From a virus (taxonomy: Duplodnaviria > Caudoviricetes): a DNA stretch of 55,547 nt. A program made the position numbers and the translations under genes. The DNA is taken from IMG/VR virus record IMGVR_UViG_3300037961_002849, positions 1 to 55,547 of that record; one strand, written 5' to 3'. The notes below the pieces were generated by a model. That model did not search any database and was not told the origin of the DNA. It was given only the letters and a program-made list of their open reading frames with translations. This document shows positions 2,485-54,842 of this stretch, piece after piece (the stretch's first letter is position 1; every line of letters begins with the position of its first letter).

Positions 2485-2500
2485 ATTAATCTAATGCCTT

Positions 2501-3601: not shown

Positions 3602-3777
3602 AAAAAGAAGAAGCAGATCGATTGAAGGCAAAAAGCCTTGAGGACACCTTGTCCTATGTGGACACCCTTAATGAATGCGAAGAGGTCTACGAGAACGAAG
3701 AGGGCGAGCAATTCATAGTGCCCTTTGAGATTGTCAGAGATTTCTCTAGAGCAGAAAAGTTAGAACCAAATAAATAG
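3598..3777 (+). CDS. 59-aa acidic hypothetical protein (MKKEEADRLK...), not in ORF track
   Basis: Manual translation. ATGA overlap with the upstream gene, and it fills the gap. Confidence 0.6.
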   Translation: MKKEEADRLKAKSLEDTLSYVDTLNECEEVYENEEGEQFIVPFEIVRDFSRAEKLEPNK

Positions 3778-3793
3778 TAAAAATAAATGCCTT

Positions 3794-3997
3794 ATGAAAA
3801 AATTCAGATGGACCGATAGAGCCGCAATCGCATTCGTGAATGTGTACAGCGGTAACTTCAACAAAACTACGCCTACAACATCTACGTACGCAAAGTACGC
3901 AGGTTTGAAGATGGAAGAAAAACTAAAAGTATTCAAGCGAGATTGGGTTGAGGCGGAGCCCTTGGTATGCCCTTGCTGTAAAAATCATGCGGTATGA
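3794..3997 (+). CDS. Hypothetical protein with C-terminal CPCC
   Basis: ORF with ATGCCTTATG motif at the start. Confidence 0.65.
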   Translation: MKKFRWTDRAAIAFVNVYSGNFNKTTPTTSTYAKYAGLKMEEKLKVFKRDWVEAEPLVCPCCKNHAV

Positions 3998-4515: not shown

Positions 4516-4536
4516 CAGCAGTAAACAACAAGCCTT

Positions 4537-4821
4537 ATGATAAAATTATTCTTATCCGACTTCGAGTACAAGGTTACCGAAGTTGATTCAAAACTAGACG
4601 AAGCCCTAAACAAAATCACCGACAAAATGTGTAGTGATTTAGAACACGGCGACGAAATCCAACTCAATGACACCTACACATTATACCGCCATTCGGATGA
4701 GGACATGTGGGATGTATTCAACACCGCGGAGTGGGAAGAAGTAGCCTCAGTGATGTGGACATCAGCTGAAGATATTGCGTTTGACATTCAAGACAAATCT
4801 TTAATGCAGATTGACCTATGA
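4537..4821 (+). CDS. Acidic hypothetical protein
   Basis: ORF with GCCTTATG at the start. Confidence 0.7.
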   Translation: MIKLFLSDFEYKVTEVDSKLDEALNKITDKMCSDLEHGDEIQLNDTYTLYRHSDEDMWDVFNTAEWEEVASVMWTSAEDIAFDIQDKSLMQIDL

Positions 4822-5000
4822 GCAAGAGAAGAAAACCAATCGTAACAACGATGTCTCGAGAAGAGATTATGGACACATGGATTTGGCTGCCGAGGCTGCA
4901 GTTCTGCGCGTCACTTGTGCTAGGAAAGAAATGGCCTAACTGCAACCAAGATGAGCAGTATGAAGTAAGAAAATATATAATTGAAAATTACGAGTTATGA
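4818..5000 (+). CDS. Hypothetical protein
   Basis: ATGA-coupled on both sides. Confidence 0.6.
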   Translation: MSKRRKPIVTTMSREEIMDTWIWLPRLQFCASLVLGKKWPNCNQDEQYEVRKYIIENYEL

Positions 5001-5257
5001 GTAAACCAAATGTAGAGGTAACGGGGATACGTTACTTTGAAACCCGAAGAGGTATAGGATACCAATGCAAAACCAATCTCGGCTTTGAGATTTGGAACGA
5101 TGGAGATGGAGGCGCCACTTACATAGACGGCGCAGGAGTGATGCCCAACCGAGAGGTGTACAGCGTATTGAAAGAGCAATTCCCAAATGCAAACCCGCAG
5201 GGGTACGATTTCGAGGAAGCGTTAGAAGGTTTAATCAATAAGTACGAGGGAGTATGA
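4997..5257 (+). CDS. Hypothetical protein (WNDGDGGAT motif)
   Basis: ATGA-coupled ORF. Confidence 0.7.
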   Translation: MSKPNVEVTGIRYFETRRGIGYQCKTNLGFEIWNDGDGGATYIDGAGVMPNREVYSVLKEQFPNANPQGYDFEEALEGLINKYEGV

Positions 5258-6154: not shown

Positions 6155-6512
6155 TGTAACGCAGAAGGTTCTTAGGTTTATCAAGAACGAAAAACCCGAG
6201 CACCTGCATCAAGTACAATCGTTTGTGAGAGCGGTTAGTAATGCGAAGAGTGACAGCAACGAAGGCTTTTACTCTAGCAATATCAAGAGGCTCCTTGACC
6301 GGGGGTTGATTAATAGAATCCACACCGGGAAGTATATTGTAACTGAGTTGGGGGAGCTCTACATTGAAGACCGAATGGCGGCTAATAGAATCATAATTCA
6401 AGAGCACCAAAAAATCAAAATCAAAGATGCTTGTGAGCTACTTGATAAGATAAAGCAGCAGCTCATTGATGGAGAGTATGAAGAAGGAGATACGATAACA
6501 ATAAAGGTTTAA
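6135..6512 (+). CDS. Putative winged-helix DNA-binding protein
   Basis: SSNIKRLLDRGLINR...KYIVTELG pattern. Confidence 0.55.
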   Translation: MQKKNLNVTQKVLRFIKNEKPEHLHQVQSFVRAVSNAKSDSNEGFYSSNIKRLLDRGLINRIHTGKYIVTELGELYIEDRMAANRIIIQEHQKIKIKDACELLDKIKQQLIDGEYEEGDTITIKV

Positions 6513-6514
6513 TC

Positions 6515-6823
6515 ATGAAGTATTATATAGTTTATAATCCCGACACCGAGCAGTTTGACCTGCGCGACAAAGAACTATGCAAGACGATATTCTCGTCTTC
6601 ATCACGAGGAAGATGCGAAGCTCGCCTCGAAGAGATTGTAAGAGAAAGTTACAAGCCCGACATGGAGAAGATGTACTACTTGATGGATAGGATGGGTGAG
6701 ACTTTACAATGTATCAAAGAGTGGGAAGGACAGCGCAAAGGTGTGCAAGATTTCGATCTCACAAGAGCACTACATTTGCACGCTCAAATGCAAATCGCTC
6801 TTGGTTTACCGCTCAAATATTAA
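6515..6823 (+). CDS. Hypothetical protein
   Basis: ORF in operon. Confidence 0.65.
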   Translation: MKYYIVYNPDTEQFDLRDKELCKTIFSSSSRGRCEARLEEIVRESYKPDMEKMYYLMDRMGETLQCIKEWEGQRKGVQDFDLTRALHLHAQMQIALGLPLKY

Positions 6824-6841
6824 TAACTTAGCACTAATTAA
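6821..6841 (+). promoter_or_regulatory. Promoter-like motif TAATAACTTAGCACTAATTAA before the recombination/replication module
   Basis: 19/21 identical to 34263-34283. Confidence 0.55.
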
Positions 6842-6851
6842 ATTCAATCTT

Positions 6852-7412
6852 ATGAGTAAATTAAACTCCGCACTCGTAGCAGTGCAGTCAGCGTTGAAGG
6901 CGCCTAAGGGTCAGTTCAACAAGTTCGGTAACTACAACTACCGTAGCGCCGAAGATATCCTAGAGGCAGTCAAGCCTCTACTCGCAAAGAATGGTTTGTC
7001 TATGACCATATCTGATGAAGTGAAAGAGCTTGCCGGAATACTATTCATTGAGGCCGTGGTTCAAGTAACTGATGGCGATTCCATAGCAGCAGTTTCAGCG
7101 CAAGCAGGTATCGACCCTAACCGAAAGGGGATGGACATAGCTCAGTGCTTTGGAGCTTCAAGTTCATACGCTAGAAAGTATGCCCTCAACGGCATGTTCT
7201 TGATAGATGATACTAAAGATGCAGACGCAACCAACACGCACGGCAAGAGAACGTCTTCACCTGCGGCAAAGGATGGCGAGTGGTTTACTAAAGCGGTAGA
7301 CTACATCAAGAAAAGCAAGGACAAAAACCAAGCGTTTGAAATGGTCCTTAGCAAGTACAAAGACAGCGCCAGCGAAAAGCAGATTGAAGCACTCAAAAAG
7401 TTTGTGCGATAA
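6852..7412 (+). CDS. erf: ERF-family ssDNA annealing protein (start revised to MSKLNS)
   Basis: LKAPKGQFNKFGNYNYRSAEDILEAVKPLL and GASSSYARKYALNGMFLIDD motifs. Confidence 0.9.
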   Translation: MSKLNSALVAVQSALKAPKGQFNKFGNYNYRSAEDILEAVKPLLAKNGLSMTISDEVKELAGILFIEAVVQVTDGDSIAAVSAQAGIDPNRKGMDIAQCFGASSSYARKYALNGMFLIDDTKDADATNTHGKRTSSPAAKDGEWFTKAVDYIKKSKDKNQAFEMVLSKYKDSASEKQIEALKKFVR

Positions 7413-12843: not shown

Positions 12844-15800
12844 TTAGTTATCTTCTAAATCCAAAAAATAATTTCTAACAATACCGTCTCTGTATGCTCT
12901 CCAAGGATAGACACCGCCAGTATAAGTTCCGCGAGAGTGTCTGTTGTATATGGACTTGAGCGCAGATATTTTCTGAGAGTTGTTCATCTTTTGATAAGCA
13001 GGGCTAGTAACAAGTCTTTTTACATCTTTATACCGAGCTTGACCAAATGATTTCATCATAGCATGAGCGTCCTTAGGCATTATAGATATGTAGTTAGGCT
13101 CATTAACATTAAGCCCATAGTAAGCAGACTCCTGCTTGGTAAGTAATATTTTTAGTTTACCTACCGCTGAAGGGTATCCCGGAATTACATCAGTATCTCC
13201 CGTCTCTTTAAACAAGTTGTATATGTCGATCTTAACCGGGTCTTTTGAGCTTATTCTAGATTTGAATACTCCAAAAGTATTGTACAACCAAGGGTACTCT
13301 TTGTCGCTATCAAAGAAAAGAGAGCCTCCGCCTTCTGGAGTTTGAGTTATAGACTCACCCCAAATGTTTACTCTAGGCACAACGGACTCTCCTAGACCAA
13401 AGAAGTTGAAGGTCTTATCTCGGAGTATGTTTTCCATTGAGTTGTCAATACCCGGGTTCGGATCTCTATAGTCGGGCAAGTACTCGCGTCCAGAGCGGTA
13501 GAATGCACTGAGTGAGTTAGGCAATACAACTGAGAATCCTGCACGCATGATGTTGTCTAAGTACTTGGTTAGCTGTCTCTCATTCGGGTCAGCCAACAAC
13601 TTAATAACCCCATCAATACCAGTCAAGAACGACTGGTCCATCATAGACCCTAAGACCCCGGGGACAACGCCCGTGATATCAGAAATGAAGTCCATAAAGT
13701 TATCAGAGCGGTTCAGTACCTTGGCGTCCATCTGAGCGTCACGCATCACAGCCTTAATACCTACAGCTTGAGCAGCTATAACAGCACCGCCCAGACCAAG
13801 CTTCTGATAGTTAAACCAAACATCATCTGCTTGAAGCGTTGGGTCTTCACCATTAATCAGCCTCTTGACACCGCTAATATTTATAGAGTTCGGAGGAGCA
13901 GTACTATACTTCATGTCTCTTTCCTTCTTTCCGTCCGCATCTATAGGGGTGGTGATCAACCCATCCTCCATCAACTTTTGAGTTGTTTTGTAAAGCAACC
14001 AGCTGATAAATGATTTGGCAAGAAGCTCAGAAAGCTCTCGGTCAGAAACCTTTTTCCCGCCTCTAATAGTTTTCTTTAGAACTAACGATAGCAATGGCAT
14101 AACCGGATGAGCAAGCTGTATACTCTGAGACAAGATATTCGCTGGTGTTTTTATATAAGGGATGTGCATACGCACCATAACACGGAAAGCGTTTTCCAAA
14201 AACGTACTTCTCTCGCCAAGAATATCAGATGCTTTAGCTATAGACTTATTTATAGCTGTGGCAAATTGGTTATCCTCTTGGAAGGTAACTCTTAGTCCTG
14301 CCTTTTCAGCTCTAGCCTTATACTCTTCATTAGGATATTTTAAGAATCTGTTTAGCTCTTCACCCTTCAGACCCAAAGACTTTCCTATACGATGAAGCTC
14401 ATAGCCCTCCATTAATCTATAGAAAGGCATATCACCAAACGCAAGCAGTCTAAACATGATATTAGCGGGACCACCGCCAACAGCCTCTAGGAATTTCTTA
14501 GCACGGAAATTAATCTCGTTTAACTTTGTGCCGTTCTTAACTGAATCCGGGAGCCTATCGCTGTTAGCTAGAATCATACCGAATGCTTTGATAGGAGCCA
14601 GCTGAAGCTGCATGTTGTATTCAAACTTATCATTAGCAATCGCCCTACCAATAGCACTTAGATAAGCTTCTCGAGCGCCAACTCCAAATTGCTTAGCCGC
14701 GTGTATTGCTGCTGGTATAGAAGGTGGCAGTGTAGCAAGAGAAGGGTCGACTTCTCTGCCCATAGATTTCTTAATGCCTCTGATAAGAACCTCAGCACCA
14801 TAGCCCAATGTCTTGTCAGCCAACATTATAGGAAGTGTAGCAAGGTTAGCGGTAATGTTTACCAGCTGAGAAACCGGGGTAAGAAGATTCCCTTGGATTA
14901 TCAACCCAATGAGCCTGCCCCAAGTCGTAGCAAAGTTTGTATTGAAGTCGTTAAGTTTACTGGTAGCTTCAGAAACTCTGTTTCTAGCATCTTCCAGTCT
15001 GTCTTCAATAGCTGGTATCTTGTTAGTCTCTGAGGTTTCTGACAGCTCCTTAATCAAAGACTGAACGTCTTGTTGCGCGTCGAACAACTCATCAACAATA
15101 CCCCCCATGGTTTCATACTCAGAATCAGATAGAGTTGTGCCGTTAGCCTCGTAGATATTGTCTACTAGATCTTTCATGCCTGCCGGGGTTTGCCCTTTAA
15201 CCTCAGCAAACTGGCGGAGCAACTGCCCCACAGCAGTACCCGTCTCAAAGAAACGCTTCAAGACAGCTCTGTATTCTTTTGTCTTCCCTTGATTCTGTAA
15301 TCTTTTTAAATATTCAAGTGTCGCTAGCACACGGAAGTCTCCACCAGCTAAAGAGCTCATCGCGTCGTTGATTACAGAAGGATTATCGCCATCAGAAATA
15401 GCGATATCTTTCATCTCAGCAAGCAACTCCTCAATAGACATTGTCTCTAGCTCAGATTTAATCTGATCGATCTTCTGAGGCTCATAGAACCTAGACATAT
15501 CTTCAGCTAAATCCTTTCTGATTGACGCCTCAAATGGGACGTTAGGGTCTAAGCTCTTGAACATCTTGCGAGCATGACGTCTTTCTTTTGTCTCTAGCCT
15601 AGCTCGATCACCGCTATCTACATACCATTCTGGGTAGAAGATACCGCCGGCTCTCTCAAATACTTGATCTTGAGCTTCATCGAAAGAAATGTTTCCGTCA
15701 GCATACTCTTGCCATATAGCACGAACGTCAGACTTGTTTTTCTTCTGAGCCTTAAATCCAGGCGTGAATAAAGTCCTAACGGCTTCCCAAGTAATAGACT

Positions 15801-18800
15801 GCATCTCTCTTGCGAGCAAGCCTTTTTGTTCTGCAGCATTACGATAAGCCTCAGCGTAAGCAAAGTATACACCTTTGATTCCAAGGTTAGAGCTACCAGC
15901 TTTAACATCGATAGCCGCAGTACCACCACCAAAGTTATGGAAGACCTCAGCGTCTGAGCCCGATAGAGGGAGAAGTTCTGCAGCAGCTACAGCATGAGTG
16001 TCTATGGTTACGTCTCCCGTGTCTGAGTTCGGGTCGTTGATGTTGTTAAAGAATGATCTCACTTTGTGCTGATCGCCTACTTTAGAATCAATGTTTTCCA
16101 TCGTGCCATCGATAGCGATAGAGGTAGCAGAGGAAATCTCAGCATAAGAACCCCAGGCCATTGTCTTCATCTCTCCATTAGCCTTCTTGCCATATCCAAT
16201 GCGCTCGCCAATAGGGCTGACGATGTGATAGTTGCGATCCTCAAACATCTCGTTATATGTACGCACGAACATCGCAGACTCCAAAGCAGCGTTATCGCCT
16301 TCAATTATTTCTCTTAGAGACTTGCCCACCATGCCTTGAAGCACAGCCTTTCTTTTTAAGTATGATTTGTAAGCCTCTTTAGTGGCCTTTCTTTTAAAGT
16401 CTTGCTGGTTTAGAATTTTATTCTTGACCTTCCGCATATTTCTCAGAGCGGTATTATACATAGACTTGCTAAACTCAGTGTCTTTCTGACTGCTCATCAC
16501 GCGCATCACTGACTCGCCAAGGGCGATGTTCTGATACCAATCCTTCTGAGGAGAAAGCGCAGCCAAGATACCCGCAGCCTGCTCTTGAGTATAGCCATAG
16601 CGAACAGCTAGGTCTTGAGCGGTAAGGTTTGCACCTACGTACCAAAGCTTTGAGTACTTCCTTACATCTTCGCTAAACGAATCATGAAGTTTGATTAAGT
16701 TTCTAGTAGCTCGGTCAACAAAAGTTTTGTAGATTTCATCTGCTCTGGTAATCTCTGCATCAGTGGGCTCGCGTTTGATGTCTAATTTTTTAGCATCCTT
16801 AATGTCCGACATGAAAGTGTGTGTAGACAAAATATAAGCACCACGAACATATACCTTAGGAGCAAACTCTTTGGTATACTCCATTGTAATTTGTCGAGAG
16901 CCGTCAAAGTTAGTGGTATTGTCAGCTGACGCAGAAGTGTTTCTAGCTGGTGATACTCTGCTTCCAGCCCCAACCTTATCTACAGCTTGTGCTACAATCT
17001 TATCATCTAGACGCGCGCGATTGCCGTTCTGCATGTAGTCAAGCTTATCTTTAAGAGACTGCAATATCTCTGCCTCTTGCTTAGCTCTTTGCTCAAATAT
17101 CCCTTGGAACCTAGTCTGAATGCTTTCGGGTTCAAACAGCGGAGTCTCAAATCTAGAAATCATATCCTTGAGTCCAGGCTCGTCTATGTTTTTAGTAAGC
17201 TCTTCTGCTATGACTCCAGCAGAAAAAGGTATAGATGAATTATCTCTATATGCGGCAAACAAACTGGTTCCGTCAACATAAGGAATCTGTATGCCATATC
17301 CGGACTGCGTCACTAAATCTCTAGCCGGATCTACTTCGATAGAGATAGGATTCACATCGGGGAGCCTTAGGTCTTCACGAAGATTATATCCATCTTTAGG
17401 CTTATGCAAAACATCATGCTGTGTTATTATCGCCTCGTCTTTTATTGTGGCATATTGAGGGATAAACTTGTTCTTTGTTCCCTCACTGACTTCGTTCTTA
17501 AAGAAAAGATTTCTAGCAATGGTACTTTCATTACCCATTAACATGTGGTTACTTTGATGACCGTCTATATCAAACACCTCGAACATCGGGAATCCGTTAA
17601 TGGTAGTTTGAGTTTTTGAGAAACCCACATTAAAGTCATGAAGATCTGGAGCAGCAATCCCAAGCTTTGCCATTGAACCAGTCATCTGCCAAATGTTCAT
17701 CGCATACCCTACGAGATCATCAATGGTCATTCTACCATCGCGCTCTGCTCTACCAATAGGATTATCAGCAGATCTTGTGAATCCATCTTTTTCAAGGATA
17801 TCGTTGAGTGCTCTAGAGGCCTCTTCGTCTTGCATCACTGCTAACAAATGCAAACCAACATTTTCGGTTTTTGCTATATCTATAGCGGTTTCGTAGATGT
17901 CTCCTGGACTTGGACCAATAGTCTCTACTAGACTAAATGACTTGTAGTAAACATCATGAATAGCTCTAACAATAAGTCTATAAATATCTTGAGCAGTGAC
18001 ATCTACGCCTCTATCAAACTTATCTGTTTTAATATCTACGTAATCCTTTGTAACAAACACGTGAGAGCCAGTGCCCATAAACGTATCAGCAGCATCTAAG
18101 AACATCGCGCCCATCCCATGATACTTAGCAAGCCCAGGGAGCTTTCCATTATACTTGTTTAAGTATATGGCCGATATCTGAGACTCTCTTAAACTCCTTG
18201 TTTGTTTAACTACTGTTTTACCGTCAAGTGTTTCAACCTCATAGGCGACTCCATAAGCACCATCACCGAGCCTTCTAACCTTAGAGATAGCCATGCCTTG
18301 AGACAGCATATACTCTTCAAGCCTAGCTCTATTAGCGGTAGTTGGTGTGCTCTTTTGTTCTGCCGATTGAGCGCTTTCAACACGGTACTCATTTATAATT
18401 TCTTGTATTTTTTCACTAACCCGCCCTCGATAATCTATAAAGTCGTCGCCGTTTACAGCAAGTCTAAAAGCCTTGGATGAGGTTGACTCATCAACAAAGA
18501 AAAGCCTATTGTGCATTACCCGCATGAACCTATTGTCTTGCTCAGAGTGCATAAGATTAACAACACCCAGGGTGTCTAGTATTTTTCTTATGGCATCTGA
18601 ACCCGGCTCACCAACAGACTCAGCATCCGATATAGATACACCTTCGGCGTCAAGGATAGACTTTATCATTGTTGGTGTGATAATATCCAACCCTGCCTGC
18701 TCGTAAAAATATTTTGCTGAAAACTTGTTCTCGCTAGGACCATCTGAATAAAAGACATCTGTTGATGATTCTTCGCGAATGTTTCTTGATGCAGTATTAA

Positions 18801-21800
18801 TGTTATCTCGATAAATTTTAATAACACGAGCTTGATGCTCGGTAGGCTCTAAATCATCGAATCGCTTCATCTCATTCACAAGTTGGCCGTCTATATCAAA
18901 CAACTTGTACTGAGAATACTTCTGAAACTTATCAGTGCTTTGAGGCTGAGCAAATCCAATGTTGCCGTAGTGAACATCTGGCGCAATGAAACCAATCTTC
19001 TCTAAACTCTCACTCATTTGGTAAGCATTATCTAAATAAGCTAATGCAAGATCAAACATCTCGAGTTTTGTAAATGGTATTGTAGAATCATATACCTCAG
19101 AATAATCATCTGGGAAATTCATTTCTGTGAATGCTCGCGCACCGCTTTCTATTATGTCTGCTAGATAAGTATACATAGATTCACTTACAGCGCCAGGAAT
19201 GGTACTGTCTGATCCAATATATTCTCTTAAAAAATTGTTTATTATTTCCCCAATTTCAAGAGGCGTGACAGTGCTCCCTTCTTCAGCAGTCATGATTGTC
19301 GGCACAAACTCTTTAATCTGATAAATCAAAGGCTCTGTCTTGCCGGTAGCAGAAACAGCAACATCATAATACTCTGCAAGGCCGGGTAGGTTTCCGTTAA
19401 ACTCACGCACATACACAGCGGAAGCTATTGTTTCTGTAACAGATTGAGCTTCTTTAACTACCACGTTGTTACCGCTAGCGTCTTTAACCAAGAATGCATA
19501 TCCAAAAGCTCCAGACCCTAGGACCTTCATCTCTGATAGGTCTAGGTTTCTATCTAAGGCAAAGTCTACCAGTCGAGCTCTGTCTCCATCATTAGCATCG
19601 CGCTCTTGACGCATTGCCTTACCCGGATTATTGTTCGGGTTTTCTTTGATTCGTTTAGCGATATCAAGGATATATATCTTCTGACCGCTACGATATCCCT
19701 GCGTTACTCTTTCTACTAAGTTTACGAGCTCATTCTCGCTCTTGAGTTTGAAACTAGAGAGCTTGCCAGATAATATTTTATTTATAGCACGTCTAGACTT
19801 ACCCTTAAATGTTGCATCAAGCTGATTTAAGTTGTCGTTTATGTCTGCTATAATACCAACGATCACCTCTTCCTCCGCAACAGCTATGGCGTGTTCTTCG
19901 GAATGCCCTCTCTCTATATAAAATGTAACGTAGTCATTGAATCGCTCATCCATTTTTTGACGAAGAGATTCATTATTGATGCTTTGTAAATCGTTGTATA
20001 AAGAAGTGCGAACCCTTGGCTCTAGAACCATGATATTACGCAGACCTGCGTGAGCAAATTCCTCGCGGATCGCCGCAGTAGTTGCGTTGAACATAACGTG
20101 AATAGCTGGTCCACCTTCTCTTTCGTGCTCATAGAACGCTTCATAAGGGCCTCCAGTAGCACGCTGTAAAGACTGTTTTGTTCTATGAATGATAACACGG
20201 GGGGCTTCAGTGTACTTATCTGTAAACGCATTGTATGCGCTGTTAAGCATCTTCGCTATACGAGGGGTAACTCCGTGACGTTTTGGATTTACCGCACCAC
20301 CACGAATCTCTATAGAATTATCTATCTCCTCAGAAGCTTCTCTTGCTTGCTCTAGAGATGACGCTGCCTCCTCCGCGGCGCTTGGCGCTACTCGCTGGGC
20401 TGGCCTAGGAGCTGGCTCAACACTTGGTTGCGCTTCTGTTGCGGCAGGTTCATCAACCTCTGGTATAGATCGTTCTGCTGTTTGCTCTGCTGCGAACTCT
20501 CGTTCGGCTTGCTCAATGGCTTGTCTTGCTGTTTCATTGCTCTCAATTATTTGGTTAACTTTTGCTCTATCTGATGGGTTTTCTCTAGCTGATAATAATA
20601 TTTGATATGCAGCATCCATAGCATCTTGCCCGTATAGCTCAACTACTGCACCGCTTTCGTCTTTCATTTGCACACGAACACCGCGCTCTGCCTCTGCAGA
20701 AATAGCGGTTGGTGTTTCTAATGGTACAAACTGACCCCCACCAAATATAGATATCGCGTTTACCCCAACCTCTGGGTCAATGCTAAGTCTTGTGCCTTCT
20801 GCTATGTTCGGGTTATCTGGTTTTTGGTACAAGAAAGTACCGTCTTCTTGAACCGCTAATGTCTGACGTTCAGCAATCGCAGGCTCAAACATTCTAATAG
20901 TAGATGGGTCCACCTCGCTGCGCTGCCCAAGTTCTACTTTTTCTGTTTCAGTCTCAACCACCAATGTAGGATTCTCTGGAGTACCCTCAAGGCGGAGAGT
21001 ACCTTGTACCTCTGTCCCGTCTATAGGTCTTTCTGCGATAACCTCAGTGCCATCTTCAAGTGTATTGATAGTTATAGGGTCTACTGTAGAAGCGCCTTCT
21101 GCTACGGAGCGAGCTTCAGTAGGAACGACTGGTGTAGCCAACTGGTCCATGTCAATTGGGTCAATAGCTGGGGCAACTTCCTCAACTTCAAAGACACCAA
21201 AATTATCCATTAGGGTTACAATCTCAGCACCTAATCTTGATTTAAGTTTTGTATCTGTGGCCTCCCGCATTTCTTGTTGGAGGGAAAATATTTTTTGACT
21301 CTTGTCAATTAAATCTAATTGTTGATCTTGAGTCAGTTCTTCGAAAGCTCTAATGTTTGCATTGAGCATTTCGTATTTTTTATTTCTAAACTCTTTTAGG
21401 TCGTCTTTTAGGGTTTGCTTAGCTTCTTTGCCCCTTACTTTTTTAAGCTGGTCTTTAGTCTCTTGTATCTTTTGCTCTACTACTTGTACTTGACCATCAC
21501 CCATAAGTGAAGCAGCGGTTGTTATACTACTTCCGTTGGCTTTGTTTTTTTGCGCCCACTGAACATAGGTTCTCTCTGAAGTAGGTGTCATAAGTTCGTT
21601 ATAGCGTGAGCTTACAGCTCGAGTAGCTGCCGCAGGAGCTGCCATCACTGGCCCCCCGAGCGCTTCCATAACAATATCAAGACCCGATGTAACTTCCCCT
21701 TCTTCAGCAATCTGACCGGCAGTTTCACCTAATGCACCACCAGTAGCGTCAACTAATATTTCTGCTCCTGCAGCCTTCATTACGCTACCGCCAGCTTTTC

Positions 21801-22818
21801 TTACAGCTTGTGCGGTTGTCCCCCCAGCTCCGGCCAATAATGCGTCAACAGAAGCAATAATAGCTGCGCGCACTTTCCTGCGCTCCATTGCATCATGAAT
21901 TTTTTTTAAGCCCTCTTCTGACTCAAATGTCTTTGCGATTTCTTCGGGGTCGGTTGTGTCGATGTGTAGTTCTTCCATTGCCATACTTATGGCCTCAGAC
22001 ATCTCAAGGGCATAAGACCCTGCAAATGCTGTCCCCGTGGCCAAACCAACACCAGTACCTATAAGATAACCCGCGGGTACAGTAATCTCAGCAAGTGGAC
22101 CACCAGCAAGACCACTAGCAACTCCAACAGCCTGGCCTTCGGCAACACTAGCGGATACTGTTTTAAGCGCCCCCTCACTAGCAAAGCCCGAGACTACAGA
22201 AGAGAAAAAATTACCAAGCAATTCTGGGAGAACAACATTTGTAATTCCGGACACACTGCCAAAAGAAGCCCAAGTCAATGGGTCTTTTTCGTTTCTGTAT
22301 TTTTCTTGAAGCTCGTTGTAATAAGCTAATCGCTCAGCAGCATCTATATTATTCTCTGGATCGCCATCTAATAAATCCTCTTTAGCACCAGTAGCCAATC
22401 CAGTGGCTACAAAGTTATTATACCATCTAGCAGCGCTGCCAAACCAGTCGTCTCTTTCTACAAACCAGTCGTCAGCAATAAGTGCATGACGATATTCTCT
22501 ATCGTTTATTTCTTGGGGCTTATTATTGGGGGCTGAGCTTTGTACAAACCTTTCTTCTAAAAGGTCATCCGAGAAATTTGTAAAGTCAGACTTTTGCTCG
22601 TATGATAAGTCCAAACCAGTATCTTCCAATCCAAAATCCGTAGTAGGAGTGACTTGGGGCGGTAGTTGAGTTTGAACTTTTTTTTTACTAAAAGATTCTA
22701 GGGCACGAGTTACTTCATCATAAGAAAACCCATTATCAATACCCATTGCGAACAAGCGGTCCTCGCTGTATCCACTATCAAAGCCGCTCTGCAATAACTG
22801 CAGTAATTCCTCGTTCAT
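12844..22818 (-). CDS. Giant virion/ejection polyvalent protein (hydrophobic segment, zincin-like domain, 2 protein kinases, glycosylase-like domain, LPD-like C-terminus)
   Basis: 3324 aa at the end of the structural operon. Motifs are detailed in the findings. Confidence 0.8.
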   Translation of the reverse strand: MNEELLQLLQSGFDSGYSEDRLFAMGIDNGFSYDEVTRALESFSKKKVQTQLPPQVTPTTDFGLEDTGLDLSYEQKSDFTNFSDDLLEERFVQSSAPNNKPQEINDREYRHALIADDWFVERDDWFGSAARWYNNFVATGLATGAKEDLLDGDPENNIDAAERLAYYNELQEKYRNEKDPLTWASFGSVSGITNVVLPELLGNFFSSVVSGFASEGALKTVSASVAEGQAVGVASGLAGGPLAEITVPAGYLIGTGVGLATGTAFAGSYALEMSEAISMAMEELHIDTTDPEEIAKTFESEEGLKKIHDAMERRKVRAAIIASVDALLAGAGGTTAQAVRKAGGSVMKAAGAEILVDATGGALGETAGQIAEEGEVTSGLDIVMEALGGPVMAAPAAATRAVSSRYNELMTPTSERTYVQWAQKNKANGSSITTAASLMGDGQVQVVEQKIQETKDQLKKVRGKEAKQTLKDDLKEFRNKKYEMLNANIRAFEELTQDQQLDLIDKSQKIFSLQQEMREATDTKLKSRLGAEIVTLMDNFGVFEVEEVAPAIDPIDMDQLATPVVPTEARSVAEGASTVDPITINTLEDGTEVIAERPIDGTEVQGTLRLEGTPENPTLVVETETEKVELGQRSEVDPSTIRMFEPAIAERQTLAVQEDGTFLYQKPDNPNIAEGTRLSIDPEVGVNAISIFGGGQFVPLETPTAISAEAERGVRVQMKDESGAVVELYGQDAMDAAYQILLSARENPSDRAKVNQIIESNETARQAIEQAEREFAAEQTAERSIPEVDEPAATEAQPSVEPAPRPAQRVAPSAAEEAASSLEQAREASEEIDNSIEIRGGAVNPKRHGVTPRIAKMLNSAYNAFTDKYTEAPRVIIHRTKQSLQRATGGPYEAFYEHEREGGPAIHVMFNATTAAIREEFAHAGLRNIMVLEPRVRTSLYNDLQSINNESLRQKMDERFNDYVTFYIERGHSEEHAIAVAEEEVIVGIIADINDNLNQLDATFKGKSRRAINKILSGKLSSFKLKSENELVNLVERVTQGYRSGQKIYILDIAKRIKENPNNNPGKAMRQERDANDGDRARLVDFALDRNLDLSEMKVLGSGAFGYAFLVKDASGNNVVVKEAQSVTETIASAVYVREFNGNLPGLAEYYDVAVSATGKTEPLIYQIKEFVPTIMTAEEGSTVTPLEIGEIINNFLREYIGSDSTIPGAVSESMYTYLADIIESGARAFTEMNFPDDYSEVYDSTIPFTKLEMFDLALAYLDNAYQMSESLEKIGFIAPDVHYGNIGFAQPQSTDKFQKYSQYKLFDIDGQLVNEMKRFDDLEPTEHQARVIKIYRDNINTASRNIREESSTDVFYSDGPSENKFSAKYFYEQAGLDIITPTMIKSILDAEGVSISDAESVGEPGSDAIRKILDTLGVVNLMHSEQDNRFMRVMHNRLFFVDESTSSKAFRLAVNGDDFIDYRGRVSEKIQEIINEYRVESAQSAEQKSTPTTANRARLEEYMLSQGMAISKVRRLGDGAYGVAYEVETLDGKTVVKQTRSLRESQISAIYLNKYNGKLPGLAKYHGMGAMFLDAADTFMGTGSHVFVTKDYVDIKTDKFDRGVDVTAQDIYRLIVRAIHDVYYKSFSLVETIGPSPGDIYETAIDIAKTENVGLHLLAVMQDEEASRALNDILEKDGFTRSADNPIGRAERDGRMTIDDLVGYAMNIWQMTGSMAKLGIAAPDLHDFNVGFSKTQTTINGFPMFEVFDIDGHQSNHMLMGNESTIARNLFFKNEVSEGTKNKFIPQYATIKDEAIITQHDVLHKPKDGYNLREDLRLPDVNPISIEVDPARDLVTQSGYGIQIPYVDGTSLFAAYRDNSSIPFSAGVIAEELTKNIDEPGLKDMISRFETPLFEPESIQTRFQGIFEQRAKQEAEILQSLKDKLDYMQNGNRARLDDKIVAQAVDKVGAGSRVSPARNTSASADNTTNFDGSRQITMEYTKEFAPKVYVRGAYILSTHTFMSDIKDAKKLDIKREPTDAEITRADEIYKTFVDRATRNLIKLHDSFSEDVRKYSKLWYVGANLTAQDLAVRYGYTQEQAAGILAALSPQKDWYQNIALGESVMRVMSSQKDTEFSKSMYNTALRNMRKVKNKILNQQDFKRKATKEAYKSYLKRKAVLQGMVGKSLREIIEGDNAALESAMFVRTYNEMFEDRNYHIVSPIGERIGYGKKANGEMKTMAWGSYAEISSATSIAIDGTMENIDSKVGDQHKVRSFFNNINDPNSDTGDVTIDTHAVAAAELLPLSGSDAEVFHNFGGGTAAIDVKAGSSNLGIKGVYFAYAEAYRNAAEQKGLLAREMQSITWEAVRTLFTPGFKAQKKNKSDVRAIWQEYADGNISFDEAQDQVFERAGGIFYPEWYVDSGDRARLETKERRHARKMFKSLDPNVPFEASIRKDLAEDMSRFYEPQKIDQIKSELETMSIEELLAEMKDIAISDGDNPSVINDAMSSLAGGDFRVLATLEYLKRLQNQGKTKEYRAVLKRFFETGTAVGQLLRQFAEVKGQTPAGMKDLVDNIYEANGTTLSDSEYETMGGIVDELFDAQQDVQSLIKELSETSETNKIPAIEDRLEDARNRVSEATSKLNDFNTNFATTWGRLIGLIIQGNLLTPVSQLVNITANLATLPIMLADKTLGYGAEVLIRGIKKSMGREVDPSLATLPPSIPAAIHAAKQFGVGAREAYLSAIGRAIANDKFEYNMQLQLAPIKAFGMILANSDRLPDSVKNGTKLNEINFRAKKFLEAVGGGPANIMFRLLAFGDMPFYRLMEGYELHRIGKSLGLKGEELNRFLKYPNEEYKARAEKAGLRVTFQEDNQFATAINKSIAKASDILGERSTFLENAFRVMVRMHIPYIKTPANILSQSIQLAHPVMPLLSLVLKKTIRGGKKVSDRELSELLAKSFISWLLYKTTQKLMEDGLITTPIDADGKKERDMKYSTAPPNSINISGVKRLINGEDPTLQADDVWFNYQKLGLGGAVIAAQAVGIKAVMRDAQMDAKVLNRSDNFMDFISDITGVVPGVLGSMMDQSFLTGIDGVIKLLADPNERQLTKYLDNIMRAGFSVVLPNSLSAFYRSGREYLPDYRDPNPGIDNSMENILRDKTFNFFGLGESVVPRVNIWGESITQTPEGGGSLFFDSDKEYPWLYNTFGVFKSRISSKDPVKIDIYNLFKETGDTDVIPGYPSAVGKLKILLTKQESAYYGLNVNEPNYISIMPKDAHAMMKSFGQARYKDVKRLVTSPAYQKMNNSQKISALKSIYNRHSRGTYTGGVYPWRAYRDGIVRNYFLDLEDN

Positions 22819-34204: not shown

Positions 34205-34212
34205 CAAAGATA
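34205..34212 (-). promoter_or_regulatory. -7 box TATCTTTG for scaffold/capsid operon
   Basis: Intergenic consensus match. Confidence 0.65.
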
Positions 34213-34262: not shown

Positions 34263-34283
34263 TAATAACTTGGCACTAGTTAA
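34263..34283 (+). promoter_or_regulatory. Promoter-like motif TAATAACTTGGCACTAGTTAA
   Basis: 19/21 identical to 6821-6841. Confidence 0.55.
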
Positions 34284-34301
34284 GCTTAAAAGATATGCCT
34301 T

Positions 34302-34676
34302 ATGAAGAATGTAATTCTAGTGTTAGCAATTTTATTAGTAACACAAACTCAAGCACAAAGTCTATTTAAAGACACCCGAGTGGTAAACGGAGTAAGATAT
34401 ACCGCTGCGTACAACAGCCCGGAAAAGGTAATGTATGTTCAGCAAGACCACTTTGATTTTACTCTAGCTGCAGACAGCTTTTCAATTCAAGTAATGAACG
34501 ATATTCAGTGGAATGCGTACGTAGACTTTATTGTTAAAGAAGAGGATGCTTTTTTTAGAGATGGGATGTACTATCTTCCCAATGATGAGCAAGTATTTAA
34601 TACAAAAAAAGAAGATGAGTTTTTAGATGGCACATACATCTACCATCTTTTTGGGTCAGTGGATAGTGGTCAATAG
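34302..34676 (+). CDS. Exported protein with signal peptide, oppositely oriented (moron-like)
   Basis: MKNVILVLAILLVTQTQA/Q signal peptide. Has its own promoter and terminator. Confidence 0.75.
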   Translation: MKNVILVLAILLVTQTQAQSLFKDTRVVNGVRYTAAYNSPEKVMYVQQDHFDFTLAADSFSIQVMNDIQWNAYVDFIVKEEDAFFRDGMYYLPNDEQVFNTKKEDEFLDGTYIYHLFGSVDSGQ

Positions 34677-37541: not shown

Positions 37542-38425
37542 TATTTGCTTTGTTTTAAATCGTCGTATGCCTTCATATCCATGATAAAAGAGTTAACCCT
37601 TTCATCTTTATTTTTTTCTTTTCCTGCCCAATGATAGTCTGCCCAGTATTCTACCAATGGCATTTTACCAGTAAATAAGTCTGCTAAATCAGCTTTTGGA
37701 TGGGCAAGCTGATTCATTAAGAACAGATATTTTTGTTGCTCTAAAGATACGGTAGAAGCGTCAAAAGACTTAGAGGGGTATGCATCTTTAATCCAAGAGG
37801 GAATCTCGTACTTTGAGAGCTCTGGATGTGACTGATCTTTACCGCTGATAAGGTTGTACGCTCGGTTTATAGCGATGATGCCCCCATGTCCGTCGCCGAC
37901 TTCAAATTGAAAAGCACCACGCCCCGGTCCTCCGCCTTTTTGTTTTATGACTGGATCCCCCTTTGACTCATGAAATATAATTCTACTCATCACATCTTCA
38001 ATCTGTTCTGGAGACGACCCTTTTGTTCTGGCCACATAGCTTACAAGCTCTTGATAGCTGAGCTCTTTTTCTGGAGCATTTACAACACCGCCCTCTTCAA
38101 ATCTTCTTTTCTGGGATTTTGGTGGAGATTTCTTGCTTCCTCCTGGACCTGCCCAAAAAAGCTTGTCGGCCCAGTAAGCCGCGCTCATTTTACCCTTAGC
38201 GATGTTCTTAGCATGGCGCGCTTTAAAAGACTTACGCGCATCTTTAGAATAGTTGTGCCCCATCTTCTGATCTCCAAAACGAATCAAACGCACCTTGTTG
38301 CCGACCTTCGCGAGAACAACTCCTTTTTTTGTCGGGTGGCTTGGCGTGCGCTTAGCTTTGTTAACCCCTTTAAGACCGTGCTTTTTAAGGAGTCTCTTGA
38401 TTCTTTTTTTTAGATCGGTGCTCAT
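37541..38425 (-). CDS. Basic N-terminal domain (RFG...RKSFKARH...SAAYW) fused to a lysozyme/transglycosylase-like domain
   Basis: C-terminal HESKGDP...GPGRGAFQF is an SLT-like motif. The junction reads FEEGG. Confidence 0.6.
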   Translation of the reverse strand: MSTDLKKRIKRLLKKHGLKGVNKAKRTPSHPTKKGVVLAKVGNKVRLIRFGDQKMGHNYSKDARKSFKARHAKNIAKGKMSAAYWADKLFWAGPGGSKKSPPKSQKRRFEEGGVVNAPEKELSYQELVSYVARTKGSSPEQIEDVMSRIIFHESKGDPVIKQKGGGPGRGAFQFEVGDGHGGIIAINRAYNLISGKDQSHPELSKYEIPSWIKDAYPSKSFDASTVSLEQQKYLFLMNQLAHPKADLADLFTGKMPLVEYWADYHWAGKEKNKDERVNSFIMDMKAYDDLKQSK

Positions 38426-38429
38426 GAAG

Positions 38430-38437
38430 CAAAGATA
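38430..38437 (-). promoter_or_regulatory. -7 box TATCTTTG, leaderless transcript
   Basis: 4 nt before the ATG at 38425. Confidence 0.7.
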
Positions 38438-38440
38438 AAA

Positions 38441-38505
38441 AATAAAAGGGGGGCAAAAGCCCCCCCTTCAATAGTAAACCAAACTCATATAAATGCCTTA
38501 TGAGT
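38441..38505 (-). ncRNA. Candidate small antisense RNA (~65 nt)
   Basis: Own -7 box at 38510-38517, a 5' hairpin and a terminator. Complementary to start-codon regions of + strand genes. Confidence 0.6.
38444..38468 (-). terminator. Rho-independent terminator
   Basis: GGGGGGC-TTTT-GCCCCCC followed by TTTTATTTT on the - strand. Confidence 0.85.
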
Positions 38506-38509
38506 AGTT

Positions 38510-38517
38510 CAAAGATA
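38510..38517 (-). promoter_or_regulatory. -7 box TATCTTTG driving the candidate sRNA
   Basis: Consensus box with no ORF between it and the terminator. Confidence 0.6.
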
Positions 38518-38529
38518 CATATAAAAACT

Positions 38530-38772
38530 TTATTCAGCGGTTTCTTGCTCAGTATATTCTCCGGTAGCTATATCGATACTGATCGATCCGTATTTTTCTT
38601 GTAGGTCTTTTTGAACTTCAGCAAGCTCTGTCTCTACTTGATCGAGTTGCGGTAAGGATTTCATAACAGCGGCAAAGCTTCTTCCTAAAGCCGCATAAAA
38701 GTTTGTTGATTGTGAAATTTTTTCACTAACCAAGGCAAGTTCTTCCTTGGTGATTTTCTTGGATTTTGCCAT
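38530..38772 (-). CDS. Small coiled-coil tail-associated protein
   Basis: EKYGSISIDIATGEY motif, downstream of the fibre genes. Confidence 0.7.
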   Translation of the reverse strand: MAKSKKITKEELALVSEKISQSTNFYAALGRSFAAVMKSLPQLDQVETELAEVQKDLQEKYGSISIDIATGEYTEQETAE

Positions 38773-47149: not shown

Positions 47150-47157
47150 CAAAGATA
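47150..47157 (-). promoter_or_regulatory. -7 box TATCTTTG, leaderless transcript
   Basis: 5 nt before the ATG at 47144. Confidence 0.7.
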
Positions 47158-53987: not shown

Positions 53988-54292
53988 CTTGAAAACTTCT
54001 CTGCGAACCCACCGGAAAAATCCGACTGTTCTGTTATACCTCCCGTTTGTTTCAGCTCCTTGACCATCTGCTCGAGTCGCTGCCTTTCCTGCAGCAGCTC
54101 TCTGGCGTCGGTAGCTGTAATCTTTATCGCTTGTAGCTCAGCCTTGCGCTGTGACCCGCCGGCCTCTGGATCGACGGGCTTTTTTATTTCGTCGATCATA
54201 TTATTGATAGCCACTTCCATGGAGGCCATCAGCCTTTCAGCTGCATCAAGCGTTGTGAACTTCTTCGATTTCGACATAAAGCAAATCATCAA
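53984..54292 (-). CDS. Conserved helical protein, possible terminase small subunit (likely start MSKSKK)
   Basis: Coiled coil, upstream of terL, GGFAE C-terminus. Confidence 0.4.
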   Translation of the reverse strand: MMICFMSKSKKFTTLDAAERLMASMEVAINNMIDEIKKPVDPEAGGSQRKAELQAIKITATDARELLQERQRLEQMVKELKQTGGITEQSDFSGGFAEKFSR

Positions 54293-54842
54293 ATCTCATT
54301 CTCCAGTATTTCTCTCCGTCGATTTCTATTTCGTAGTCGGAATTCTTTGAAAACCCTACGATATCGCCTACCCTAATTCCAGCCTCTTCCAGAACCTTAT
54401 TTGTAAACGCAACCTTGCCGCGCTTATTTTCTTTCTCTTCAAAGCTTATGATTTGGATGGTGTTGCTCTTGAGCTCTTCTTCCTCTTCCATGGGGTGGAG
54501 CAGTACCCATCCCGATAGTGCTCGGATGCCGTTTTCATCTTTCACGGCGAATGCCTGGGATGAATATGGAGTGTCGGGGTGGTATCTTACTATGAATAGT
54601 TTTTCATCTTCATATACTAACCCTTGGCCTTTATCCATTACCACGTGGTGGTGGAAGTATAGTGTATCACCTTTGTTTGCGATATTTTCATCGCGCATGG
54701 GCACGGAGACGATCTCGCCTTCCATCACCCGGTGTTCAAACTCATTGTATTTTGAAGCTAGATAAAGCTCCTCCCCGTTCACCTCTATGGTGTCTTTAAA
54801 TCTCTTGGATAGACGCACCAAGAAATTCTCTACCATTTTCAT
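54246..54842 (-). CDS. Co-chaperonin GroES-like protein with two tandem domains
   Basis: RALSGWVLLHP...GKV...VGDIVGF...EIEIDGEKYWRMRFDDLL, plus an N-terminal GEIVSVP..KGDTLYF copy. Confidence 0.75.
   Translation of the reverse strand: MKMVENFLVRLSKRFKDTIEVNGEELYLASKYNEFEHRVMEGEIVSVPMRDENIANKGDTLYFHHHVVMDKGQGLVYEDEKLFIVRYHPDTPYSSQAFAVKDENGIRALSGWVLLHPMEEEEELKSNTIQIISFEEKENKRGKVAFTNKVLEEAGIRVGDIVGFSKNSDYEIEIDGEKYWRMRFDDLLYVEIEEVHNA

Follow-up and report, generated by a model that had tools for sequence, protein, structure and literature searches.

Why should a short gap between two structural genes of a virus carry the reverse complement of leaders and start codons that belong to genes on the opposite strand, 4-36 kb away? 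The question is raised by the window, a 55.5-kb IMG/VR viral contig (IMGVR_UViG_3300037961_002849, positions 1 to 55,547; completeness estimate 93%) that we analysed over its whole length. Its + strand genes at ~1-12 kb include those for Erf, a PDDEXK-like protein and a DnaB-like helicase with a BT4734-like domain, and its - strand genes at ~12-55 kb encode the terminase, portal, tail fibre and virion proteins; we refer to the two strands as the early and the late strand, respectively. The initial annotation had read the - strand at 38441-38517 as a candidate late small RNA (sRNA) antisense to the start codons of multiple early genes, which might act as an early-to-late switch. We could confirm its observation, and its interpretation is partly supported by the sequence comparisons described here. 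The reading that we favour, to which we assign a probability of about 0.55, is that an RNA of ~65-70 nucleotides (nt), or in two related phages of a second clade a 3' untranslated region (3'UTR), base-pairs with the messages of several phage genes at their 5' leaders and start codons. The conserved anti-leader element is probably transcribed.

The element fills a 104-nt gap that separates an 80-amino-acid (aa) gene from a 294-aa gene, both on the - strand and within the structural module. Along this strand, the stop codon of the first gene is followed by a box, TATCTTTG, a hairpin, a linker, an intrinsic terminator and a second TATCTTTG, and then, 4 nt on, by the ATG of the second gene. Relatives were collected with the 294-aa protein, for which full-length counterparts were found in nine viral contigs; 71 further loci from the same search belong to unrelated phages. 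We grouped the relatives into clade A (the window, called G000, together with G001, G002 and near-duplicates), clade B (G006-G008, ~69% protein identity) and clade C (G011). No close relative of the window was present in the phage database searched.

Both the sequence and the fold agree with the box, hairpin, linker and terminator that had been annotated on the - strand. As DNA, the hairpin (38505-38483) reads ACTCATA / AGGCATTTA / TATGAGT. The minimum-free-energy (MFE) fold of the element consists of exactly two hairpins, with an energy of -27.7 kcal/mol and a z-score of -4.8, and 0 of 200 shuffles were as stable. The same two-hairpin fold with an unpaired linker was obtained for 4/4 relatives folded (0/200 shuffles each). 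The hairpin ahead of the linker is weak by itself (-5.1 kcal/mol in G000, late strand). The annotation had also stated that the locus contains no open reading frame (ORF). Two small ORFs do exist, one of 34 aa at 38500-38604 (+) and one of 28 aa at 38385-38471 (-), the latter running through the terminator, but the element is without a conserved ORF: the frame from the + strand ATG measures 34, 30 and 2 aa in clade A and 11, 8 and 56 aa in clade B. No Rfam family reached its gathering score anywhere in the window, and the best weak match within 38380-38580, to an unrelated family, had 23 bits versus a gathering score of 58.7. A likeness of CUCAUAA to the anticodon loop of initiator tRNA was dropped, because clade B does not keep CUCAUAA.

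All six complementarities of the initial annotation were found at the corresponding starts by sequence matching and BLAST-short (Table 1), and every one of them overlaps the earliest codon at which a + strand ORF could start. The complement of the linker (AATAGTAAA, AGTAAACCAAA, AGTAAAC) recurs just upstream or downstream of several of these start codons. The 11-mer AGTAAACCAAA at 5000-5010 had been absent from the earlier list; with it, gene 4997 matches both the hairpin arm and the linker. The proposal of a regulon of early genes stands in so far as a set of the phage's own start regions is matched, but one target is a lone + strand gene for a secreted protein in the structural module. This gene, 34302-34676 (+), stands alone within the structural block, and its product of 124 aa carries a signal peptide.

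Table 1. Coordinates of the element, its flanking genes and its predicted targets in the window
Feature	Position	Strand	Remarks
TATCTTTG box, putative sRNA promoter	38517-38510	-	Matches sigma-A -7 consensus TAnnTTTG; hairpin base 5 nt downstream
Hairpin, 7 bp	ACUCAUA 38505-38499; loop AGGCAUUUA 38498-38490; UAUGAGU 38489-38483	-	From the fold
Anti-start core CUCAUAAGGCA	38504-38494	-	Identical in G000, G001 and G002
Linker, 16 nt, UUGGUUUACUAUUGAA (DNA TTGGTTTACTATTGAA)	38482-38467	-	Unpaired in MFE fold; identical in G000, G001 and G002
Intrinsic terminator GGGGGGGC-UUUU-GCCCCCC, then UUUUAUUUUUU	38466-38437	-	12 pairs, 7 of them G-C, loop 4; from fold and terminator scan
Second TATCTTTG box, putative promoter of 294-aa gene	38437-38430	-	ATG 38425, 4 nt downstream; marks end of putative sRNA unit
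Best predicted target, 67-aa early gene, ATG 3794	3773-3797	+	15/15 at 3783-3797, plus AATAGTAAA at 3773-3781
Predicted target, lone 124-aa signal-peptide gene, ATG 34302	34295-34305	+	11/11, ATGCCTTATGA
Predicted target, 366-aa early gene, ATG 2501	2493-2503	+	11/11, AATGCCTTATG
Predicted target, 94-aa early gene, ATG 4537	4532-4540	+	9/9, GCCTTATGA; cAGTAAAC upstream, TAACTTTA box farther upstream
Weaker predicted target, erf, ATG 6852	6849-6858	+	10/10, CTTATGAGTA; ERF family by Pfam/PHROG scans
Weaker predicted target, 86-aa gene, ATG 4997	4995-5010	+	9/9, TTATGAGTA at 4995-5003, plus AGTAAACCAAA
Upstream gene, 80 aa	38530-38772	-	Without Pfam or PHROG family; the clade-B gene at this position would have the element as its 3'UTR
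Downstream gene, 294 aa	37541-38425	-	N-terminal domain like minor head / DNA pilot proteins; anchor for relatives

We asked whether such complementarity is a matter of chance. Start windows make up ~2.1% of both strands. When the reverse complement of the element was compared with its own genome by BLAST-short (self match removed, E<=2), 6/14, 2/15 and 4/14 matches fell into start windows in G000, G001 and G002, respectively, and in the opposite orientation 0/14, 0/15 and 0/14 did so; the opposite orientation gave 0, 0 and 1 start-window matches in G006, G007 and G008. A reversed control gave 1/8, 0/3, 0/5, 0/4, 0/7 and 0/2 over these six genomes, in the same order. In the alignment test, the five best local alignment scores of the element to start regions were summed. 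This top-5 sum was reached by 0, 4, 2, 0, 0 and 1 of 300 dinucleotide shuffles in G000, G001, G002, G006, G007 and G008, and, in the same order, by 0, 5, 0, 7, 0 and 0 of 400 natural windows that were matched in GC content and taken from outside the start regions. The 15-mer matched at 3783-3797, with <=3 mismatches allowed, was not enriched (4 matches versus 2.75 expected; 31/100 shuffles reach 4), and a genome-wide k-mer ranking was dominated by coding repeats. As judged from the sequence tests with shuffles and natural windows, the link of the element to start regions is non-random.

An unbiased census of 9-mers common to at least three start regions pointed to the element as well. ATGCCTTAT, TGCCTTATG and GCCTTATGA each have 4 copies in the window, both strands considered, namely three early-gene starts and the element. 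G002 has 7 copies of GCCTTATGA, all in the early-strand sense, which comprise the element, 5 called starts and 1 other site that resembles a start. For GCCTTATG, we observed 7 copies in the window (4 at the starts of the ORFs of 366, 67, 94 and 124 aa, 1 in the element and 2 elsewhere), 9 copies in G002 versus 1.05 expected (p 1.6e-6; 6 start-like, 1 element, 2 elsewhere) and, in the partial contig G005, which lacks the region of the element, 6 copies with 4 at starts. GCCTT is the top pre-ATG 5-mer on the early strand, at 4/25, 2/19, 5/23 and 4/22 crude gene calls in G000, G001, G002 and G005, respectively.

The genes tagged in this way are partly non-orthologous. The 60-aa gene at 4818 of the window has no tag, whereas its orthologs in G001, G002 and G005 are tagged, and for two tagged genes of G002 (198 and 215 aa) the window offers no full-length counterpart. 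The tag is also present at several starts of cistrons that lie inside an operon. Since the tag occurs on non-orthologous genes and on internal cistrons, translational control of each cistron fits better than a transcriptional operator.

Three further sequence features were noted around tagged or targeted genes. In G002, the gene just downstream of the element (2149-2165) starts with TCCTTATGAGT, of which 9 nt are complementary to the element's own hairpin arm; a start of this type next to the element was not seen in G000 or G001. Repeats of ~45 nt, TAACCAAAGTYAGT-CACCYGNGGGTG-CA..., with a short stem-loop, lie just upstream of tagged ORFan early genes in G002 (segment 20001-40000, at ~16950-17000 and ~17700-17760 within the segment) and in G005 (~6180-6230). 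No such unit stood out in the upstream regions of the window that were viewed, in which no dedicated search was made. In T4-like phages, promoter/stem-loop cassettes flank mobile ORFans, and the ~45-nt repeats are reminiscent of these. Lastly, TAATAACTTRGCACTARTTAA, a partly palindromic sequence of 21 nt, occurs on the + strand at 6821-6841, 11 nt before erf, and at 34263-34283, 19 nt before the lone gene, both of which are also predicted sRNA targets. Two matches were found in 0/100 shuffles, and TAATAACTTRGCACTARTTAA probably serves both genes as a promoter or operator that belongs to a separate class.

Next, we compared the element among the relatives. Clade A keeps the box, the hairpin, the linker, the terminator and the second box. 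Between G000 and G001, the gap is identical at 91/106 positions (86%), versus 186/429 (43%) of the upstream coding sequence (CDS) and 322/442 (73%) of the downstream CDS; the corresponding values are 92/106, 191/430 and 337/442 for G000 and G002, and 99/103, 260/418 and 376/442 for G001 and G002. CUCAUAAGGCA is invariant in clade A, and the 3' half of the loop drifts (AUUUAUA, AUUGA, AUACA). The 80-aa gene at 38530-38772 (-) is itself fast-diverging (43% nt identity to G001), yet its position is kept; only two other hits were obtained for it, at a protein identity of 41-43%.

In clade B, an element of different sequence occupies the same place. It consists of the hairpin UUCUCAU-GACA-AUGAGGA, the linker UUUAGUUGGUUAG and then the terminator, which is present in clades B and C with different stem sequences. 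The outer two hairpin pairs are A-U and G.U in G001/G002 and U-A and U.G in clade B, a compensatory difference; the pairs were compared from the folds, and a MAFFT alignment of the six elements misaligned the hairpins between the clades. Clade B shows no enrichment of GCCTTATG (4, 0 and 2 copies in G006, G007 and G008). Its top pre-ATG 5-mer on the early strand is TTGTC (2/22, 2/22 and 2/26), which complements the loop of the clade-B hairpin in register with the start codon. The early-gene leaders of clade B, TTGTCATG and TAACCAAYTAAAT, differ from those of clade A and match the clade-B element, and several of them resemble the whole reverse complement of the element, e.g. CCTCACTAACTAAAATTTATTTGTCATG and AAATCTTTATTGTTATGA. 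The clade-B ortholog of gene 34302 has TAACCAATTAAATT-N8-ATG, compared with TAACCAACTAAATC-N9-ATG in the complement of the element, and matches the clade-B linker.

When elements and start regions were swapped between the clades, the matrix of alignment scores was block-diagonal. The clade-A element scored 47.5-58.5 on clade-A starts and 37-44.5 on clade-B starts, and the clade-B element scored 38.5-42 and 48-55, respectively, so that cross-clade swaps drop the score to background. Covariation of the seed with the target motifs in related phages, which had been put forward as a check on the initial proposal, was thereby observed: by these sequence comparisons, the element and its predicted target leaders differ concordantly between the two clades.

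In clade C (G011) the synteny is the same, but the place of the element is taken by a 24-nt spacer and a terminator, and there is no hairpin. The spacer stays at background in the alignment test (153/300 shuffles and 272/400 windows as good). The early leaders of G011 (~38.4-42.7 kb) carry TTAAATTTTCAATG or TTAAATTTTCAATTT..ATG, and TAAATTTTC has 6 copies there, all on the early strand. This leader motif has no mirror copy elsewhere in G011 and none in its structural module, so tagged leaders exist without an antisense element.

We then considered how the RNA might be made. The window contains 8 copies of TATCTTTG, 7 of them on the - strand, and these 7/7 are intergenic. Six of the 7 lie 4-27 nt ahead of a structural-module ATG, usually right after a terminator, and the seventh precedes the hairpin. 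The sequence upstream of the hairpin's box, GTTTTTATAtg, is similar to GTTTTTATAcc at the box at 34212, and the hairpin's box is kept in G001 and G002. According to the excerpted text of PMC7366714, TAnnTTTG is the consensus -7 element of the primary sigma factor of Bacteroidota. As the promoter box is credible, an independent transcript of ~65-70 nt is plausible, and, as the box falls into the structural-gene promoter class, the candidate transcript is tied to that class. The single RNA unit of ~65 nt that had been annotated would fit clade A, where promoter box, hairpin and terminator are all present, but not G006 and G008. In these two phages no box lies directly upstream, and the hairpin begins immediately after the stop codon of the upstream gene; here the element RNA would be a 3'UTR and not an independent transcript. 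In G007, a TACATTTG box is found further upstream of the element.

The TATCTTTG box also lies 4-5 nt before the ATG of three structural-module genes (738-745, 38430-38437 and 47150-47157, -). From this spacing, these genes may have leaderless or near-leaderless mRNAs. In Bacteroides, 5'UTRs of fewer than 10 nt amount to about 3.7% only (PMC7366714, excerpted text).

In the mechanism that we favour, the - strand of the gap between the 80-aa and 294-aa genes would encode a small non-coding RNA. For the window and the phages close to it, we propose that transcription starts from a separate promoter of host type, TATCTTTG, located a few bases ahead of the hairpin, and stops at the intrinsic terminator; in two clade-B phages the RNA would be the 3' end of the upstream late mRNA. 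It would carry the reverse complement of the leader and start codon common to 3794, 34302, 2501 and 4537, and more weakly of those of 6852 (erf) and 4997, with the complement placed in the 5' arm and loop of the hairpin (CUCAUAAGGCA) and in the single-stranded linker. Pairing is predicted to begin at the loop or the linker, to open the weak hairpin and to cover the start codon. Ribosomes, which in Bacteroidota do not use Shine-Dalgarno pairing, would then fail to initiate, and the message would be silenced or degraded. With a promoter of the structural-gene class, the RNA would act during virion production.

A broader proposal is that both clades of these uncultured phages, whose hosts are probably Bacteroidota, use one co-evolving anti-leader RNA, made together with the structural genes, as a master post-transcriptional switch over tagged early and accessory genes, including ORFans that have no orthologs. 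The address tag in the leader and start would be GCCUUAUGA in one clade and UUGUCAUG and UAACCAAYUAAAU in the other, with gene sets that change. We regard this proposal as tentative, with the odds clearly against it.

Several observations weigh against the pairing of an sRNA with phage leaders. One group concerns the hairpin. Its energy on the late versus the opposite strand is -5.1 versus -6.5 in G000 and -4.6 versus -5.3 in G002, and a clear preference for the late strand is confined to G001 and clade B, so clade A is mixed. The seed had been placed in the loop of the hairpin; this is correct for AAGGCA, which the clade-A loop carries, but CUCAU, which makes up half of the anti-start core, lies within the stem, and the clade-B loop has just 4 nt. 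With CUCAU in the stem and so short a loop in clade B, the single-stranded linker probably shares in recognition.

Another group concerns the statistics. The start sets came from a crude ORF caller that accepts ATG only. Same-orientation BLAST-short is weak in clade B, with 1/7, 2/9 and 1/10 matches in start windows (G006, G007, G008). The exact 8-mer test was significant in G000 and G002 and not in G006 and G008, which have only 2 targets each, and its window count included the element. By duplex energy, the best 7 start regions of G000 and the best 8 of G002 all lie on the early strand, which 0/100 shuffles match, and 3794 (-26.0 kcal/mol) and 34302 (-24.1) rank 1 and 2 of 62 start regions in the window, but natural windows did as well in 10/100 (G000) and 15/100 (G002) cases. 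GC content confounds duplex energy, and the ranking was therefore dropped as non-specific.

The remaining points concern the context. TAnnTTTG is the housekeeping consensus of the host, so that the label 'late' follows only from the gene neighbourhood. The host phylum itself is presumed to be Bacteroidota from the promoter motif and the BT4734-like domain; a scan of a genome collection for relatives gave N-terminal-domain matches only, with no pointer to the host. Clade C lacks the element, which is therefore not essential to this phage group. No third variant of the element was found in public viral contigs, where exact-pattern scans re-found only 4 and 5 known contigs, and a metagenome scan returned 4 full-length relatives with elements identical to the known types. 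As the public collections hold two sequence types only, the covariation amounts in effect to one evolutionary contrast plus one negative control. A search of sequencing runs listed a single run, not on record as RNA, with 0.22 of the words. We infer the small RNA, its timing, its pairing and the sign of its effect from sequence alone.

Other explanations of the same facts deserve to be set beside sRNA pairing. The start-region motif could be the site of a phage protein, such as a RegA-like repressor, a RegB-like nuclease or a DNA-binding regulator, in which case the copy in the structural module would be one more site or a by-product and no RNA would pair. T4 provides the precedent, with RegA sites over the start codon in ~30 mRNAs and RegB cuts in early initiation regions (PMC3014915, excerpted text). 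Enrichment of a motif at starts requires no RNA partner, and many early proteins here have no known family in Pfam and PHROG scans. We nevertheless consider a protein site unlikely, while placing it foremost among the alternatives. An RNA-binding protein would see the motif on + strand RNA only, and there is neither a + strand gene nor a promoter box near 38.5 kb. A DNA site would leave unexplained the hairpin, its loops of 9, 10, 10 and 4 nt and its place between a promoter box and a terminator; sites in internal cistrons would be unusual for a transcriptional operator. The TAnnTTTA box of clade-B leaders is, moreover, replaced in the element by the terminator stem. No RegA/RegB-type family was found among the 10 small + strand proteins scanned, for which no specific homologue search was made. 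Somewhat less probable is that the gap is conserved just as punctuation, i.e. a terminator and promoters, and that the anti-leader stretch is a neutral relic of an inverted duplication of a leader or a hitch-hiker. A terminator followed by TAnnTTTG is indeed the standard junction in this genome, clade C has exactly a terminator junction without the hairpin, and the 15-nt identity with 3794 could be the trace of a duplication. However, conservation of the hairpin and linker equals that of the terminator and boxes, whereas the two flanking genes diverge, and it is precisely the anti-start core that is invariant, with drift in the loop's 3' half. A relic would not beat shuffles and natural windows on several leaders in both clades, nor would it change together with the leaders.

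Ranked below this, and improbable in our view, is that a small RNA is made whose relevant targets are mRNAs or sRNAs of the host, the phage matches being secondary. Most characterised phage sRNAs act on host genes (PMC12197685, excerpted text), but a concordant change of element and leaders between clades is not expected if host targets alone matter. Finally, the initial annotation had itself allowed that the locus is just the start of a + strand micro-ORF at ATG 38500, and a copy of a + strand promoter-leader that drives an RNA antisense to the 80-aa gene would be a variant of this idea. The + strand does read like other motif-bearing starts (ATAAATGCCTTATGAGT), and the 34-aa ORF follows it. 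The frame is, however, down to 2 aa in one relative and varies widely in the others, no promoter box lies upstream on the + strand, and greater stability of the hairpin on the late strand is seen in G001 and clade B but not in G000 or G002. We consider this very improbable.

How does the proposed RNA compare with known systems? By analogy, its closest counterpart in mechanism would be the c4 antisense RNA of phages P1 and P7, and its closest counterparts in role would be RegA and RegB of T4. c4 pairs via its loops with sites around the ribosome binding site of ant mRNA (PMC12197685, excerpted text). Like c4, as far as the excerpt describes it, the element would give a phage small RNA with predicted pairing to non-overlapping target sites on the phage's own mRNAs. 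c4 acts on one operon, ant, in temperate-phage immunity, whereas the element lies in the structural module and matches 4-7 dispersed genes. c4 and its target also come from one transcript, out of which c4 is processed; the element and its targets are on opposite strands, 4-36 kb apart, and a Pfam scan of 40 window proteins gave neither an integrase nor a repressor domain. The antisense bases of c4 are in loops. In the element, whose predicted targets span start codons, AAGGCA is in the clade-A loop and CUCAU is in the stem, and clade B has a loop of 4 nt. Rfam holds a c4 model. Location, target number and probable lifestyle set the element apart from c4, and it is no member of an Rfam family.

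RegA acts on ~30 mRNAs at sites that include the AUG, and RegB cuts early mRNAs in initiation regions, both being proteins (PMC3014915, excerpted text). The likeness, within what this excerpt covers, is functional only and consists in the proposed shut-off of many phage mRNAs, early and middle ones in T4, through a short motif of the initiation region. In contrast to RegA and RegB, the proposed effector is an RNA and not a protein, and the motif is GC-containing and clade-specific rather than A+U-rich. sRNAs derived from 3'UTRs form a general class, which the element resembles in G006 and G008, where it follows a stop codon and shares the terminator of the mRNA. Unlike such sRNAs, it has its own promoter box in the window, G001, G002 and G007, and biogenesis appears to differ within the family.

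GibS, an sRNA of Bacteroides thetaiotaomicron, pairs across the start codons of several mRNAs via single-stranded seeds (PMC7366714, excerpted text). As described there for GibS and other trans-encoded sRNAs, the element combines a putative promoter of the TAnnTTTG type with an intrinsic terminator, and the presumed host phylum does not use Shine-Dalgarno sequences. Unlike GibS, which is chromosomal and has metabolic targets, it shows no sequence relation to that sRNA and no Rfam match. Lambda OOP and P22 sar are short cis-antisense phage RNAs (PMC12197685, excerpted text), to which the element is similar, on that description, as a short phage RNA that would run to a terminator and block phage mRNAs in their translation or stability. 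OOP and sar overlap their target gene, unlike the element with its distant targets. Of the general features of trans-encoded sRNAs, the element has a terminator, no conserved ORF and a seed complementarity to multiple mRNAs beyond chance.

A search of the literature in full text, which returned mostly listings and abstracts, yielded no described sRNA of Bacteroidota phages and no phage RNA directed against multiple start codons. For the most part, known phage sRNAs regulate host genes or, in cis, a single phage gene, and global early shut-off is known from proteins (T4 RegA and RegB). If the broader proposal of a master switch is true, the element would be an RNA counterpart of these two proteins and the first described phage riboregulator for hosts without Shine-Dalgarno-led initiation. 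If the element works as proposed, a lytic-type phage would run a multi-gene early regulon with one small RNA, regulator and targets would co-evolve as a matched set, and new genes would join the programme by bearing a 9-nt tag at their start. It would also provide a sequence-programmable handle on translation in Bacteroidota, whose initiation signals are poorly understood. The prediction is concrete, as it defines the RNA ends, the seed and the targets, and the sister clade offers natural compensatory variants.

Two other genes of the window were noted. The ORF at 12844-22818 (-) would encode a protein of 3324 aa in a genome of 55 kb, and only a stretch of ~110-230 aa matches PHROGs of unknown function; the idea that this is an N4-like virion RNA polymerase with hairpin promoters was rejected, as PHROGs gave no backing. 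The 198-aa protein encoded at 54246-54842 (-) has a C-terminal Cpn10 (GroES-like) domain (E 2e-7), and judging by this match it may be a phage-encoded co-chaperonin.

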